A DNA stretch of 35,014 nucleotides from an uncultured Chitinophaga sp. (GTDB lineage Bacteria > Bacteroidota > Bacteroidia > Chitinophagales > Chitinophagaceae): contig CAZZLP010000001.1 of assembly GCA_964654705.1 (NCBI GenBank), positions 1 through 35,014 on the forward strand. Reading direction: 5' to 3'. Below the pieces are notes generated by a model. The model made no database searches. It was not told where the DNA came from and was given only the letters and a program-made list of their open reading frames with translations. A program made the position numbers and the translations under genes. Positions 10,396 to 16,595 of this stretch are shown piece after piece. Numbering within the stretch: the first letter of the stretch is position 1; each line of letters begins with the position of its first letter.

Positions 10396-11580
10396 TTATC
10401 CCTCAAAAGATGTTTTACCAGCACCAATTAGCTTAAAGGCCAGCAATCCCAGTAGCGCGGCGCAAGTAGAGGCAATCAATATGGCCAGCTTGGTACTGAC
10501 CACGGTTGGCGTATCCGTAAAAGCCAGCAGCGTAATAAAGATCGACATGGTAAATCCGATCCCGGCCAGCAGACCCACCGCAGCAATATGCTTCCACGAA
10601 ACATCCGTAGGCAACTGCGACCACCCGGCACTAATGGCTAATCGACAAAAAAGTAAAATGCCCAATGGTTTGCCAATGACCAATCCACTCATAATGCCAA
10701 GGCTATTGATCGACAGCAGGGTAACGGGCAAATCGGCGCTGAGTATTATACCCGTATTGGCGAGTGCAAATAACGGAACAATAAAAAATGCGGTCAGCGG
10801 ATGAAGCGCCTGTTGCAAGCGGGCCGAGATCGAGCGATCACCACCGGTACCAAAAGGGATGGCAAAGGCAAGTAACACGCCGCTGATCGTGGCATGCACC
10901 CCCGAGCGAAACATACAATACCACATTAGCCCGCCTCCCAACAGGTATATGGGCAATACCGAAAATCCTTTTTTCCCTGCCATAAAAAGTACGGCAAAGA
11001 TGCCGAGGGCAGCCAGCAGGTAGGCGATCGAAAGTTGATCGGTATAAAAAAGCGCGATCACCAAAATGGCCCCCAGATCATCTATAATGGCCAGCGCTGC
11101 TAAAAATACCTTGAGAGCCGGAGGCACGGCCTTTCCCGCCAACGATAAAATACCGAGTGCAAAGGCGATGTCGGTGGCCATGGGTATGCCGAAACCATCG
11201 GCATAGGGGGTGCCCCTGTTAAAGAGGAAGTGGATCAGGGCGGGCAGTAACATGCCTCCCACTGCCGCCATGATGGGTAAAAAAGCCTGCCGGAATTTGG
11301 AGAGCTCCCCGATGTAGATCTCCCTTTCGATCTCGAGCCCGACCAGCAAAAAGAAGACGGCCATGAGTCCGTCGTTGATCCATTGCTCGAGGGTCAGGGG
11401 GCCAAGATGCGTATGCCATAGGTGGGCATAGGCCGAACCCCCTGCACTATTGGCAATGATCAGCGACAACAGGGTACACCCGATCAATATAAACCCGGAG
11501 GCTTTTTCGCTACGGAAAAAGTCTAAAAAGACCCGGGAAAGAACCGGCTGCCTACTGGTGCGCATGGAGGAGGCCGACAT
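10396..11580 (-). CDS. nhaA: Na+/H+ antiporter NhaA
   Basis: WINDGLMAVFFLLVGLEIERE, GIPMATDIAFALG, LAIIDDLGA, SGVHAT and AGIGFTMSIFI. Confidence 0.96.
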   Translation of the reverse strand: MSASSMRTSRQPVLSRVFLDFFRSEKASGFILIGCTLLSLIIANSAGGSAYAHLWHTHLGPLTLEQWINDGLMAVFFLLVGLEIEREIYIGELSKFRQAFLPIMAAVGGMLLPALIHFLFNRGTPYADGFGIPMATDIAFALGILSLAGKAVPPALKVFLAALAIIDDLGAILVIALFYTDQLSIAYLLAALGIFAVLFMAGKKGFSVLPIYLLGGGLMWYCMFRSGVHATISGVLLAFAIPFGTGGDRSISARLQQALHPLTAFFIVPLFALANTGIILSADLPVTLLSINSLGIMSGLVIGKPLGILLFCRLAISAGWSQLPTDVSWKHIAAVGLLAGIGFTMSIFITLLAFTDTPTVVSTKLAILIASTCAALLGLLAFKLIGAGKTSFEG

Positions 11581-11687: not shown

Positions 11688-11717
11688 TTTGTGTACTTGG
11701 CGACAGAGTTATCTTTG
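11688..11717 (+). promoter_or_regulatory. Bacteroidota promoter (-33 TTTG at 11688-11691, -7 TATCTTTG at 11710-11717) for the small ORF/exporter operon
   Basis: Both consensus elements present with an 18-nt spacer. The ATG at 11726 follows 8 nt after the -7 element. Confidence 0.72.
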
Positions 11718-11725
11718 CAATCGAT

Positions 11726-12025
11726 ATGAAAATCGTGGCCCTTTTTTTACTGTTGACCTTTTCCGGAACTATCCTGCTTCCGGTGGCCATGTCGTTGACG
11801 AAGCAAAATCAAGTAAGTCTCTTTATTGTTGATGAAGAAAAAAGCAACAATACAGGGCAGTTCAACGAGATCAAAGTACAAAAACAAGATTACAGCGGCC
11901 TTTATTTGACCTCAATGATGGCGATCGCCGACAACACGTCGCAGCTGCCTGGCGATGGTCGACGCTGTTCGCTTCCGCCCTCCCCTTATCTGGAATATGT
12001 AGCCCCTCCTCCCAACGTTTGCTGA
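11726..12025 (+). CDS. Small hypothetical protein with N-terminal hydrophobic helix and C-terminal Pro-rich motif (candidate leader/monitor peptide)
   Basis: 99-aa ORF directly after a consensus promoter. MKIVALFLLLTFSGTILLPVAM, then acidic DEEK, ending LPPSPYLEYVAPPPNVC. Confidence 0.72.
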   Translation: MKIVALFLLLTFSGTILLPVAMSLTKQNQVSLFIVDEEKSNNTGQFNEIKVQKQDYSGLYLTSMMAIADNTSQLPGDGRRCSLPPSPYLEYVAPPPNVC

Positions 12026-12101
12026 TGTTCGTTTGTTAAAGTCCGTGGTGTGCCATGAACACCGGGCTTGATCGTTTCAACTTATCATCAACCAAAGCAA
12101 A

Positions 12102-13763
12102 ATGGGAAAAGTAAAAAGTCCGATTACAAGAATTTTAGACCTGGTCAAATTAGAAAAGGGAGAGATCTCTGCGATCTACTTCTACGCCATCCTCAATGGA
12201 TTGATCTTACTGACGGTACCCCTGGGGGTACAATCTATTGTGGGTTTCGTACTGGGTGCCTCGTTTAGAGCATCGATCTATGTGCTGATCTTTTTAGTGG
12301 TGCTGGCGGTGTTAATCTCGGGCCTGATGCAAGTGAATCAAATGAAGATCATCGAAAAGATCCAGCAACGCATTTTCGTACGCTATGCCTTTGCTTACAC
12401 CGATACCATCCCTCGACTCGATCTTAAAAAGAACGACGGGGTTTATTTACCTGAGCTAATCAACCGTTTCTTTGATACGGCCACCTTGCAAAAAAGCTTG
12501 TCCAAGATACTACTGGAAATTCCGACCGCAACGATTCAGATCTTTTTTGGACTGCTGCTCCTTTCATTTTATCACCCCACCTTTATCGTATTCTCGATCG
12601 TGGTCTTATCGCTGCTCTGGGCCATTCTATATTTTACCGGAAGCAAAGGACTCGAAAGCAGTCTTCGCGAGAGCACCAACAAATACAAAGTAGCAGCCTG
12701 GCTCGAAGAGATGGCCAGGGTAATAAAGACGATCAAGATTGCTACACTCAATGGGCTGCACCTTAAAAAAACCGATGAGGCCACGGTAGAGTACCTGGAT
12801 GCCCGTAACGAACACTTTAAGATATTATTATTGCAATACCGTACGCTGGTGGCTTTTAAAACCACCATTACAGCGGCTATGTTGATCTTTGGATCGATAT
12901 TACTCGTCAACCAGCAACTGAATATCGGTCAGTTCATTGCTGCCGAAATTGTTATTCTGACCATTTTGAATTCGGTAGAAAAACTCATCATCAATCTCGA
13001 TAGCGTCTATGATACGCTGACCGCCGTCGATAAACTGGGTAAGTTAACCGACAAACCGGTAGAGCAGTTTGGGCAAATTCCGCTAACGAGTACTTCGCAA
13101 GGTGTCAAGATCGAAGCTCGCGAGCTGACCTTTAGTTACCCCGATCGTCCCCCTATTTTTGACAAGATCGAATTTACCGTAATGCCCGGTCAGCATGTTT
13201 GCGTTATGGGTAAGGGCGGAACGGGTAAATCAACCTTGTTACGTTTGCTCGATGGAGCTTTTTCTGATTTTGAGGGAATCTTGAAGATAGATGATATTCC
13301 CCTTCGCAACTATGAGCTGACCTCGCTTCGTTCGAACATTGGGATAGTACTACATCAAGACGACATATTCGCAGGTACACTTTGGGAAAACATAACGATG
13401 GGCAGAGAAGGAATCGACATCAAGCGCGTGGTAGAACTACTCGATAAACTGGGATTGAGCTCCTACTTTGCCAGCTTACCGCTTGGATTTGATACGGTAC
13501 TGGACCCGATGGGGCAGCGTTTACCCGAGCAGATTATCCATAACATTATGCTGGTGAGAGCGGTGGCGGGATCGCCCCGATTACTGTTGCTCGAAGAACC
13601 CTGGAGTGGAATGGAAGACAGCAACAGAGCACAAATTATACAGCTGTTAGCAACACTCAAGAACGTTACGACCATCGTTGTAAGTAACGATGATGAATTT
13701 GCTGCCACCTGCGACCAGACCTTTTATATGGCTGGAGATGGAAGTCTTACCAAAACTAAATAA
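12102..13763 (+). CDS. ABC exporter, fused TMD-NBD (T1SS/HlyB-like, no C39 domain, degenerate NBD)
   Basis: Multi-pass N-terminal membrane domain and Walker A GKGGTGKST. Signature region reads GQRLPEQI, Walker B LLLLEEP, switch region VSND. Confidence 0.88.
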   Translation: MGKVKSPITRILDLVKLEKGEISAIYFYAILNGLILLTVPLGVQSIVGFVLGASFRASIYVLIFLVVLAVLISGLMQVNQMKIIEKIQQRIFVRYAFAYTDTIPRLDLKKNDGVYLPELINRFFDTATLQKSLSKILLEIPTATIQIFFGLLLLSFYHPTFIVFSIVVLSLLWAILYFTGSKGLESSLRESTNKYKVAAWLEEMARVIKTIKIATLNGLHLKKTDEATVEYLDARNEHFKILLLQYRTLVAFKTTITAAMLIFGSILLVNQQLNIGQFIAAEIVILTILNSVEKLIINLDSVYDTLTAVDKLGKLTDKPVEQFGQIPLTSTSQGVKIEARELTFSYPDRPPIFDKIEFTVMPGQHVCVMGKGGTGKSTLLRLLDGAFSDFEGILKIDDIPLRNYELTSLRSNIGIVLHQDDIFAGTLWENITMGREGIDIKRVVELLDKLGLSSYFASLPLGFDTVLDPMGQRLPEQIIHNIMLVRAVAGSPRLLLLEEPWSGMEDSNRAQIIQLLATLKNVTTIVVSNDDEFAATCDQTFYMAGDGSLTKTK

Positions 13764-13774
13764 GAAGCTACTCC

Positions 13775-15103
13775 ATGAACAACGAAAACTATACAGCACA
13801 CAAAAAGATCTACCGCTACGACCGCGAGAGCCGCGTGCGCTATTGGTTCTACGGTATTTTGTTGGGTCTAATCATTATCCTTTTCTTGCCCTGGACGCAG
13901 AACATTCGCAGCCGGGGGTTGGTCACTACTTTGTATCAAGATCAGCGCCCGCAACAAGTTAATACGATCATCGGAGGACAGGTCATCAAATGGCATGTTA
14001 AAGAAGGCGATGTAGTAAAAGCAGGTGATACGTTGGTTCAACTTTCAGAGGTAAAAGTGGACTACCTCGATCCGCAACTACTTAACAGAACCATGGAGCA
14101 GGTCAAAGGGAAGGAACAGTCCATCGATTTTTATCAGAACAAAGCCCAAGCCGCCGAAAAACAGATCGCTGCCCTCAATAGCGGACTGACCTTAAAATTG
14201 GAGCAGCTTCGTAACAAGATCGTACAGTTGCAATTAAAGGTGCAGGCCGACAGCGCGGAGACCATTGCGGCCCAAAACGACCTCAACATCGGTAAGCTGC
14301 AATTCGATCGTCAGCGCGCCCTCTTTGACAGCGGACTGGTATCCCTCACACAAGTAGAACAACGCAACCAGACCTATCAATCGGCCCTGGCCAAAAAGAT
14401 CGCTGCCGATAATCGGCTGGCCAACACCCGGCAAGAGTTGACCATTACCACCATCGAAATGAATGCGCAGCTGCAAGAGAACAGAGAAAAAGTGGCCAAG
14501 GCAGAAGGTGACCGCTTTCAATCATTGACCGAAGTAGCCGGCGGACAAGTTGATGTAGCCAAATTGCGTAACCTATACGCCAGCTACAGCATCCGGAATG
14601 GCATGTATTATATACTGGCCCCTCAAAGCGGACAAGTGATCAGTGCACGCAAAGCAGGTATTGGCGAATACGTTAAAGAGGGAGAAATGATCGTAGAGAT
14701 CGTTCCGGAAAAATTCGTATACGCCGTAGAGATGTTCGTGCGCCCCCTTGATATTCCGCTAATTTCGCCCGGACAAAAAGTACGTTTTCTCTTTGATGGC
14801 TTTCCGGCGATCGTATTTAGCGGATGGCCCAATGCCTCTTATGGTACTTTCGGAGGAATCGTTGTTGCCGTAGAAAGAAATACCAGCCAGACCGGAAAGT
14901 TCAGAGTGCTGATCAAAGAAGATCCCAACGACAAACCCTGGCCCGACCAGTTGCAAGTGGGTGCCGGTGCACAAGGCATCGCCCTACTCAAAGATGTACC
15001 CATCTGGTATGAACTCTGGCGAAACATCAACGGTTTTCCGGCCGATTACTATAAGCCACAGCAACAGAGCAACGAAAAAGCCACCAAACCGACCACCCCA
15101 TGA
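13775..15103 (+). CDS. HlyD-family membrane fusion protein
   Basis: Single N-terminal TM (ILFLPWTQ), lipoyl half-motif VKEGDVVKAGDTL, long coiled coil, and APQSGQV...GEYVKEG. Confidence 0.92.
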   Translation: MNNENYTAHKKIYRYDRESRVRYWFYGILLGLIIILFLPWTQNIRSRGLVTTLYQDQRPQQVNTIIGGQVIKWHVKEGDVVKAGDTLVQLSEVKVDYLDPQLLNRTMEQVKGKEQSIDFYQNKAQAAEKQIAALNSGLTLKLEQLRNKIVQLQLKVQADSAETIAAQNDLNIGKLQFDRQRALFDSGLVSLTQVEQRNQTYQSALAKKIAADNRLANTRQELTITTIEMNAQLQENREKVAKAEGDRFQSLTEVAGGQVDVAKLRNLYASYSIRNGMYYILAPQSGQVISARKAGIGEYVKEGEMIVEIVPEKFVYAVEMFVRPLDIPLISPGQKVRFLFDGFPAIVFSGWPNASYGTFGGIVVAVERNTSQTGKFRVLIKEDPNDKPWPDQLQVGAGAQGIALLKDVPIWYELWRNINGFPADYYKPQQQSNEKATKPTTP

Positions 15104-16575
15104 CGCTTTCGCCGCATCGATCTATACGCTTACTTATTGTTTACTGGGGACTGCTTTGCACGGCACTGCCTTTGTTCGCTCAGCAATCTAGAGCCCCGAA
15201 AGGAGACTTGTCTTCGCAGGTGGTTAAGGGTCGTTCTGAAAAGACCTTATCGGCCGATGAAGTGATGCAACTGGTAAGACAGTTTCACCCAGTAGCGAAA
15301 CAGGCAGGTATACAAGTGCAGCAGGCAGCCGCAAAGTTATTGGCGGCCAGAGGGGGTTTTGATCCAGTTATCTCACAACGATTAGCACAAAAGACCTTTG
15401 ATGGTACGGCTTACTATGACTACAACAATCCGGAGCTTACCATTCCTACCTGGTTCGGTGTTGAAGTAAAGGCCGGTGTTGAGACGCTCAATGGAAATCG
15501 CGTCAATACCAGCGAAACGGCAGGAACGAGTAACTATGTAGGCATCAGTGTTCCGTTGGGGCGAGACTTGTTGATGGATAAACGCAGGGCCGTATTGCAA
15601 ATGGCCAAAGTAATGCGTGAGGCCTCTTATGCAGAACAAAGACGCATGCTGAATGACCTATTGCTGGACGCCCAAAAAGCCTATTGGAGCTGGTACAAGA
15701 GCTACCAGATCTTATTGGTGTTTAACGAGGCCGTCGGCGTCAACGAAATTCGATTGGCCTTTGTGCGGTCCGCTTTTCGCCTGGGCGATCGTCCGGCCCT
15801 CGATACGACCGAGGCACTGGCTCAATTGCAACAACTGCAGGTACAACAACAAGCGGCAAAACTGGAACTGCGTAACAGCCAACTGGAACTTTCCGTTTTT
15901 CTGTGGACTCCCGAAGAAAATCCGTATTTGCTTCCCGACGAGATCGCCCCACTGATTCCGGGTGGCGAGCAAACCCTCGAAAATCAGCCTATACCCGTAC
16001 TGGATAGTCTGCTGGTAATGGCCAGAAAAAATCACCCTGAACTCTTACTCTATAACTTCAAGTTGCAAACGTTGTCGATCGAAAAGCGTTATCGCCTTCA
16101 GCAACTATTGCCACAAGCCGATCTGCAATACAATTTCTTACAAGAGGGCAATCGTTTTGCCAATATCATCAAGGCTCCCCTTTTTGATAATAACTTTCAA
16201 TACGGTCTAAAGATGAGTATACCGATCCGTCTTTCGGCCGAACGTGGTAACTACCGAAACACCAAACTCACCATCAACTCGGTACGGTTAGAACAAGACC
16301 TCAAGACCATAGAAATCGAGAATAAGGTCAAGGCCTCCTTTAACGAACTGGTCAATCTTCGCACACAGGTGGCCCTGCAGACCAAGGCTTATGCGAACTA
16401 CTTTTTACTGCAACGTGGAGAAGAAACGCGTTTCAGTATCGGAGAGAGTTCGCTGTTTTTGGTCAATGCCCGCGAGAATAAACGACTGGAAGCCTTACAA
16501 AAGTTACAGGAGTTAAAGGCCAAGCTGGCACTCGCCGGGTATCAGCTTAGCTGGGCCGCTGGCCGCATTGAATAA
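15100..16575 (+). CDS. TolC-family outer-membrane efflux protein
   Basis: Signal-like N-terminus, ARGGFDP, LLPQADLQY and RFSIGESSLFLVNARE. ATGA overlap with the HlyD gene. Confidence 0.9.
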   Translation: MTLSPHRSIRLLIVYWGLLCTALPLFAQQSRAPKGDLSSQVVKGRSEKTLSADEVMQLVRQFHPVAKQAGIQVQQAAAKLLAARGGFDPVISQRLAQKTFDGTAYYDYNNPELTIPTWFGVEVKAGVETLNGNRVNTSETAGTSNYVGISVPLGRDLLMDKRRAVLQMAKVMREASYAEQRRMLNDLLLDAQKAYWSWYKSYQILLVFNEAVGVNEIRLAFVRSAFRLGDRPALDTTEALAQLQQLQVQQQAAKLELRNSQLELSVFLWTPEENPYLLPDEIAPLIPGGEQTLENQPIPVLDSLLVMARKNHPELLLYNFKLQTLSIEKRYRLQQLLPQADLQYNFLQEGNRFANIIKAPLFDNNFQYGLKMSIPIRLSAERGNYRNTKLTINSVRLEQDLKTIEIENKVKASFNELVNLRTQVALQTKAYANYFLLQRGEETRFSIGESSLFLVNARENKRLEALQKLQELKAKLALAGYQLSWAAGRIE

Positions 16576-16595
16576 TAGAATGCGTTTCTGTTCGT

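Follow-up and report, generated by a model that had tools for sequence, protein, structure and literature searches.

A conserved polyproline-ending leader ORF ahead of exporter and inorganic-carbon genes in Bacteroidota: a candidate ribosome-pausing switch

The window, that is, the whole 35,014-nt stretch of Chitinophaga DNA analyzed here, contains an ABC/HlyD/TolC exporter operon that is headed by an ORF of 99 codons, and this arrangement raises the question of whether the small product serves the exporter or whether its own translation controls the genes behind it. A preliminary description had favored a ribosome-stalling leader peptide, with an accessory subunit as the alternative. The analysis of sequences described below supports the first reading by the conservation pattern, the 5' position and the complementarity of an RNA helix, and we propose, with a probability of about two in three, that the leader is a cis-acting ribosome-pausing switch of the SecM/CutF kind, in which the paused ribosome would free the start of the ABC gene. 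The features of the locus are collected in Table 1.

Table 1. Features of the leader and its operon (window positions)
Feature	Position	Strand	Basis
Bacteroidota -33 element TTTG	11688..11691	+	Sequence; consensus from PMC6847099
Bacteroidota -7 element TATCTTTG, ending 8 nt before the leader ATG	11710..11717	+	Sequence; consensus from PMC6847099
Leader ORF, 99 aa, unnamed Bacteroidota family	11726..12025	+	ORF call, profile searches, dN/dS 0.13-0.19
N-terminal hydrophobic helix, aa 2-25, candidate signal peptide or signal anchor	11729..11800	+	AlphaFold2, Kyte-Doolittle, conservation
Acidic motif D36-E37-E38-K39, candidate sensor or pulling element	11831..11842	+	Conservation
Variable low-confidence spacer, aa 40-86	11843..11983	+	pN, pLDDT
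P94-P95-P96 followed by N97, candidate ribosome pause site	12005..12013	+	All four Pro codons at each position
5' arm of predicted outer helix (PPP codon end, N-V-C codons, stop)	12010..12027	+	Most pairs with 12086-12107 at probabilities of 0.8-1.0
Inner hairpin	12039..12069, core 12041-12067	+	Folding; hairpin recurs here in homologs, its sequence does not
3' arm, comprising the ABC gene's AUG and its A-rich translation initiation region, both predicted to be sequestered	12086..12107	+	Folding, opening energy
ABC exporter (ABC_membrane and ABC_tran), no peptidase domain, degenerate NBD motifs	12102..13763	+	Pfam/NCBIfam domain matches
HlyD-family periplasmic adaptor	13775..15103	+	Pfam/NCBIfam
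TolC/OEP outer-membrane channel	15100..16575	+	Pfam/NCBIfam
Junction where close relatives hold ~2.3 kb more (SulP and beta-carbonic anhydrase), absent in the window	16558..16587	+	blastn vs L065, L067 and L070; Pfam Sulfate_transp, Pro_CA

The consensus promoter that had been described ahead of the leader ORF is present and is of the Bacteroidota -33/-7 type, while a sigma-70 promoter scan of the plus strand gave no match. The pattern TAnnTTTG occurs six times on the plus strand of the whole window and once between 11601 and 12110, as the -7 element of the leader; there is no second copy ahead of the ABC gene, for which the preliminary description saw no obvious promoter. A detail overlooked in the preliminary description is that the leader ATG stands just 8 nt past the -7 element. 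As transcription starts are placed 4-5 nt after this element (PMC6847099), the leader 5' UTR is predicted to span ~3-4 nt and the mRNA to be near-leaderless. The same prediction follows from the homologs, in 50 of 66 of which TAnnTTTG lies 4-9 nt ahead of the start codon. In F. johnsoniae, by contrast, 87% of the transcripts with a probable promoter have more than 10 nt (PMC6847099).

The leader family is matched by no Pfam or NCBIfam family, 'hypothetical protein' is the sole name given to the sampled members of its clusters, and no description of it was found in the literature searched, in which subscription journals are thinly covered. With a dN/dS of 0.13-0.19 against five close relatives, the leader ORF is, as judged from sequence comparison, a real conserved gene under purifying selection. 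Against the same relatives, pN reaches 0.33-0.37 in aa 41-83 but stays at 0.04-0.08 in aa 1-40 and at 0-0.03 in aa 84-99. In the family alignment, the conserved columns are M-K, the hydrophobic helix up to the near-invariant P19 (94%), D-E-E-K (82, 91, 88 and 82% of 143 aligned rows, respectively), P87 and PPP(N/D), and the acidic motif is separated from the last proline by 52-60 residues in 115 of 124 members. The helix, the acidic patch and the A93-P-P-P-N-V-C-stop end named in the preliminary description are all found in the window, and its expectation that conservation would be confined to the helix, the acidic patch and the PPP motif was borne out, the spacer being free in sequence and fixed in length. 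The P84-P-S-P87 element given there also exists, but it was dropped as a second motif because its conservation is limited to P87 (88% of 143 aligned rows) and does not extend to P84 and P85. The confident part of the AlphaFold2 model is helix 2-25 only, with no folded domain predicted (pLDDT 84-87 over aa 1-20 and 45-64 in the spacer, pTM 0.25), and the Kyte-Doolittle 19-mer maximum of the leader is 2.38.

A profile built from 19 genus-level members matched 268 representatives at E <= 0.001. Among the 136 representatives kept out of 150 (length 85-145 aa), which are selected by the profile and thus biased towards the motif, the C-terminal end carries PPP in 121, PP in 11 and neither in four, the latter being partial matches. 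A length below 150 aa together with PP within the last 15 residues characterizes 132 of these 136 representatives, and also the 62 loci selected by position that are described below. None of the 1,076 ORFs of at least 200 aa in the window's genome (G000) has PPP in its last 10 residues. In 70 non-redundant loci, PPP is followed by N (53 loci) or D (15 loci) and ends 2-4 aa before the stop codon in 64; all four proline codons occur at each PPP position, which argues for selection on the amino acid, i.e., on the peptide. A search of G000 with a wide profile found no second leader copy. Best matches below E 1e-6 occur in about 30 of 401 sampled genomes and come from several Bacteroidota families.

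The position of the leader was followed in 80 loci with orthologs of the ABC gene, from which 11 with less than 450 nt upstream were set aside. In 62 of the remaining 69 loci, a leader lies directly ahead of the first gene, which encodes the ABC protein (53 loci), SulP (8 loci) or carbonic anhydrase (1 locus); the unfiltered listing includes no leader-like ORF without prolines (61 with PPP and one with QPP). The seven loci without a leader have a divergent TetR gene (4), a contig end (1) or neither (2), and a leader and TetR occur together at one locus (L174). Ahead of the 29 best class-wide ABC homologs beyond that of the window, no leader was found within 400 nt and TetR was found within 1.5 kb in 15 cases, about six of the 29 being longer, peptidase-type proteins whose true upstream region is missed by the 400-nt check. 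Judged from gene order, the leader tracks the 5' end of the operon, not the ABC gene, and is exchanged with a TetR regulator in evolution. Other small ORFs were observed around these operons. An unnamed protein of 113-114 aa without a Pfam match recurs in the module (L040, 759-1097, minus strand; L106, 7533-7877, plus strand; L102), being encoded behind a second leader copy in genome G013 and ahead of the ABC gene in L102 and L106; it may have a CutA/PII-like look. In L083, L103, L105, and L113, a second, longer leader with the end H-G-E-x-x-V-P-P-P stands at the head of another operon, for SulP and carbonic anhydrase, which lies close to that of the exporter.

The operon of the closest relatives has the order leader-ABC-HlyD-TolC-SulP-carbonic anhydrase-gldA. 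In the window, domain matches reveal a GldA-like ATPase further downstream of the TolC gene; tblastn found neither SulP nor carbonic anhydrase in G000, which is 83% complete, and by this comparison the two genes have been lost from the window's operon. The related records that carry names are mostly from Chitinophagaceae. On the other side, the gene for an NhaA Na+/H+ antiporter (10396-11580, minus strand) is divergent from the leader, as it is in close relatives; a divergent nhaA fits a pH theme, and most of the farther loci have other neighbors. At the nhaA/gldA site of other members of the genus, the operon erodes and the leader stays: L051 (G310) retains the leader with a truncated ABC stub, L034 (G034) has SulP first, and L035 (G016) has carbonic anhydrase alone. 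The ABC orthologs (L063-L142) end their Walker B motif in EE (60), ED (11) or DE (2) among 73 matched sequences, carry the signature G-K/Q-R-L-P instead of LSGGQ, and show the canonical Walker A pattern in 31 of 74 cases. Going by such motifs, the ABC protein of the exporter operon may be a weak or atypical ATPase.

Beyond the ABC orthologs, SulP-first leaders accounted for 9 of 12 phylum matches of the genus-level profile alone. For 40 wider loci, which were picked from 91 matches of a wider profile that included SulP-first seeds, the first gene encodes SulP in 30, carbonic anhydrase in two, an ABC protein in one, a Peptidase_S74-type protein in six (four checked with Pfam) and an unrelated protein in one. 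One of the loci (L178) has the leader, SulP, carbonic anhydrase, DabA and a proton antiporter subunit in one run, which makes a complete inorganic-carbon uptake cluster. A sister group of leaders (L170, L183-L186, and L200) precedes small proteins with the Peptidase_S74 (endosialidase chaperone) domain, not carbon genes, and the pairing of the two arms described below is weak at the six S74-type loci (-1.8 to -6.9). Three profile matches were rejected: L059 and L060 lie spuriously inside long genes, and the wide-profile match L180 (G352), with its RGPP end and different operon, belongs to another family; the latter leader has His/Cys motifs, stands ahead of a lipoprotein-like gene and a gene of 731 aa, and looks like a CutF/CruR-type uORF. 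Since the leader family mostly heads SulP, carbonic anhydrase and DabA genes, inorganic carbon or periplasmic pH is our best guess for the signal. Given the pausing mechanism, we tentatively put such a signal, acting via D-E-E-K or the translocation force, at somewhat less than an even chance. The S74-linked leaders and the lack of SulP and carbonic anhydrase in G000 weaken this step and speak against a single strict signal.

The hairpin at ~12041-12067 that had been noted in the preliminary description is there, although its role appears secondary to a longer outer helix that was overlooked, in which 12010-12027 pairs with 12086-12107. The inner hairpin has a folding energy of -13.4 kcal/mol, with a z-score of -2.07 for a 40-nt piece chosen around the hairpin and of -0.31 for the whole leader-ABC intergenic region. 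It was rejected as an intrinsic terminator, not being scored as such by a terminator scan, and as a direct target of the paused ribosome, since it starts 26 nt past the last proline codon, beyond the assumed footprint of 15-21 nt. Translation initiation in Bacteroidota depends on upstream adenines and low structure (PMC6847099), and therefore the outer helix is placed to repress.

The specificity of this pairing was assessed by a swap test, in which the 21 nt after PPP were combined with the 30 nt ending at the downstream ATG, taken either from the same locus or from the other loci. The first set went back to 109 motif-selected records, of which 89 loci were unique and 70 remained once redundancy was removed; a record had to have a downstream start to be retained, and the filter failed to pick up a few close relatives. 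Native duplexes in this set have -8.0 kcal/mol vs -4.8 kcal/mol for the swapped ones (n = 70; 0 of 10,000 permutations), with only 51 of the 70 loci beating their own swapped mean, and four control arms gave no gap between native and swapped. The second set comprised 34 of the 40 wider loci (four overlaps, L180 and L198 were dropped, and three starts were set by hand), and gave -5.8 vs -4.0 for these further loci (0 of 10,000), the controls being not significant. Ordinary gene pairs of G000 display no pairing gap (-6.0 vs -6.1, n = 144). The window's own duplex is imperfect, at -7.4 native vs -5.0 swapped. A preference for T-ending codons in the 5' arm was discarded as an additional feature, being significant for Cys only (p 0.0005) and not for Asn, Phe and Asp.

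Covariation was analyzed after 49 of 54 candidate regions had been aligned with MAFFT; in this alignment, the helix of 12 pairs has 76% of its cells paired, compared with 30-49% in slid registers, and 51 double changes vs 22.5 in shuffled data (0 of 500); the register was read from the same sequences, and kinship inflates the test. RNAalifold found no consensus pairs in the same 49-row alignment of intergenic regions. When a ribosome footprint was masked at the second proline, the median opening energy of the start region in the 70 loci fell from 7.4 to 4.4 kcal/mol, vs 7.5 kcal/mol with control masks; it drops by at least 1 in 45 loci and rises in 11. For the ABC start in the window, the opening energy is 9.8 kcal/mol in the free transcript and 4.5 kcal/mol with the footprint masked, after which the AUG re-pairs with 12092-12094 at ~0.6. 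We consider the long-range helix over the start region, and not the inner hairpin, to be the likely switch.

In the proposed mechanism, the N-terminal helix would direct the growing peptide to the membrane, and translation would pause at PPP-N. A ribosome held there would occupy the 5' arm of the predicted outer helix, so that the A-rich sequence around the ABC start would become accessible and downstream translation would be turned on. The sequence basis for this scheme comprises the conservation pattern, the fixed spacer length, the 5' position in the operon, the TetR exchange and the co-varying complementarity, while we infer the export of the chain, the pause itself, its direction (pause = on) and the signal from CutF, SecM, and uA_LPPP. 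As a precedent, stalling of uA_LPPP occurs with the second proline in the P site; against the scheme, EF-P normally resolves PPP, and uA_LPPP is without stalling in vivo in E. coli (PMC10987492).

A pausing leader could instead act mainly on transcription in the style of CruR or MgtL, with a Rho site rich in C shielded by the ribosome and with polymerase pausing at the inner hairpin. CruR is described to work in this way (PMC9426467), a hairpin recurs at the position of the inner one, and in 68 of 70 loci the 70-nt segment that leads up to PPP contains more C than G (mean +0.10, compared with -0.01 in the downstream gene); however, this skew may come from the Pro, Leu, Ser, and Thr codons, and a covarying helix over the start region is unnecessary for Rho control. 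We regard Rho control as the main mode of action as unlikely, and note that it can co-exist with the unmasking of the start region.

The accessory-subunit alternative is weakened by the occurrence of the leader at the operon's 5' end whatever the first gene, and by its lack ahead of the 29 distant ABC homologs. A small trans-acting membrane or periplasmic protein that assists the exporter or the carbon-uptake module, the helix then reflecting ordinary translational coupling, would account for the strong purifying selection on aa 1-40, where D-E-E-K together with the conserved helix could provide a surface for binding, and for a first gene with its own promoter. Yet the neighbor changes between ABC, SulP, carbonic anhydrase, and S74 genes while the first position is kept, no fold is predicted (pTM 0.25), the best-kept residues are the terminal PPP at a fixed distance, and ordinary gene pairs are devoid of the helix signal, which together make such a role quite improbable in our estimation. 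We hold as very improbable a constitutive or housekeeping monitor, in which the pause would report the supply of EF-P or prolyl-tRNA, or else the overall pulling force of Sec, and not a solute connected with the genes downstream. PPP is a classic EF-P substrate (PMC12856214), a conserved Cys/His ligand motif is missing (CxxC/CxxxC in 4 of 136 representatives), and the same leader also precedes unrelated S74-type genes; on the other hand, SulP or carbonic anhydrase, which form one functional module, come first in 32 of the 40 wider loci, and the swap with a TetR regulator suggests a specific signal.

The exported stalling leaders of the cited papers sense translocation activity or copper (PMC9973294; PMC9426467; PMC10987492; PMC12856214). 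In the family described here, a metal motif is lacking, and the genes that follow encode bicarbonate transporters, carbonic anhydrases and exporters. The ribosome-pausing switch may be extended to a widespread Bacteroidota nascent-chain sensor of CO2/bicarbonate or periplasmic pH, in which D-E-E-K emerging from the translocon would set the polyproline pause and thereby unmask a Shine-Dalgarno-free start; in this complete form we rate it as rather doubtful. If true, it would constitute arrest-peptide control of inorganic-carbon uptake in heterotrophs, evolutionarily interchangeable with a TetR repressor, could show how heterotrophic Bacteroidota regulate their CO2/bicarbonate supply, and would tie an ABC/HlyD/TolC system to an inorganic-carbon module. 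In addition, leader control can be put to the test here in a phylum where ribosomes disregard the Shine-Dalgarno sequence, and the compensatory mutations for the predicted helix are already defined.

By language-model features, the named clusters nearest to homolog P0002 are PF20365 (DUF6660, 0.88) and PF28244 (CzcI, 0.89), values below 0.9 being leads only; the 30 best matches have no Pfam family in common, and HMM searches with the leader gave no match to any leader family. DUF6660 and CzcI proteins are small heads of metal-efflux operons. In VemP, a signal and a spacer are followed by a proline motif. The leader, if its N-terminal helix acts as a signal, shares the succession of signal, spacer and proline motif with uA_LPPP, the RQH/RAPP peptides and SecM (PMC10987492; PMC12856214); for instance, uA_LPPP of Planctomycetota has XPPP in the last 15 aa and stalls there (PMC10987492), and SecM stalling exposes the secA start (PMC12856214). 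These peptides are encoded upstream of secA, secDF or yidC, whereas the leader precedes SulP, carbonic anhydrase and ABC/HlyD/TolC genes in Bacteroidota, no sec or yidC gene being the first downstream gene in the leader loci examined. CruR of Bordetella pertussis (DUF2946) is an exported-type uORF that, like the leader, heads an operon and in which the spacing between a conserved motif and the proline motif for arrest is constant (PMC9426467; PMC12992588), but it differs in its RAPP and CXXC motifs and in Rho-dependent termination (PMC9426467); PMC12992588, in the portion used here, covers RAPP/RGPP uORFs only. Membership of the leader in DUF2946 or the RAPP class was rejected. DUF2946 was matched neither by the window protein nor among the families matched by the 19 members (E up to 1), CxxC/CxxxC is absent from the window protein, which reads V-A-P-P-P-N at its end, and RAPP-like ends occur in 2 of 136 representatives. 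The downstream genes encode SulP, carbonic anhydrase, ABC/HlyD/TolC, DabA and S74-type proteins, with no metal-homeostasis genes among them.

CutF, a DUF2946-like leader of cutFOG in Rhodobacter capsulatus, resembles the leader in its length below 150 aa, its C-terminal polyproline, its short intergenic region, and a stem that covers the ribosome-binding region of the following gene and would open on ribosome stalling (PMC9973294; bioRxiv 10.1101/2025.02.05.636593); its N-terminal export signal may have a counterpart in the hydrophobic helix of the leader. Here, computation places an RNA stem on the start of the downstream gene, one which ribosome stalling could open, with RNAalifold giving no consensus. 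The leader differs from CutF by the lack of CxxxC and of a DUF2946 match and by downstream genes that are not copper genes; moreover, what is masked is not a Shine-Dalgarno sequence but the Bacteroidota type of A-rich start region, and the 5' arm overlaps the last codons and the stop of an mRNA that is predicted to be near-leaderless. The terms SulP, carbonic and ABC do not occur in three supplementary files of PMC9973294, and the 5,334 CutF-like proteins of that study, which lie outside these files, may include members of the leader family. By analogy with these systems, the leader likely works like CutF and SecM, while standing outside the DUF2946, RAPP and sec-gene classes.
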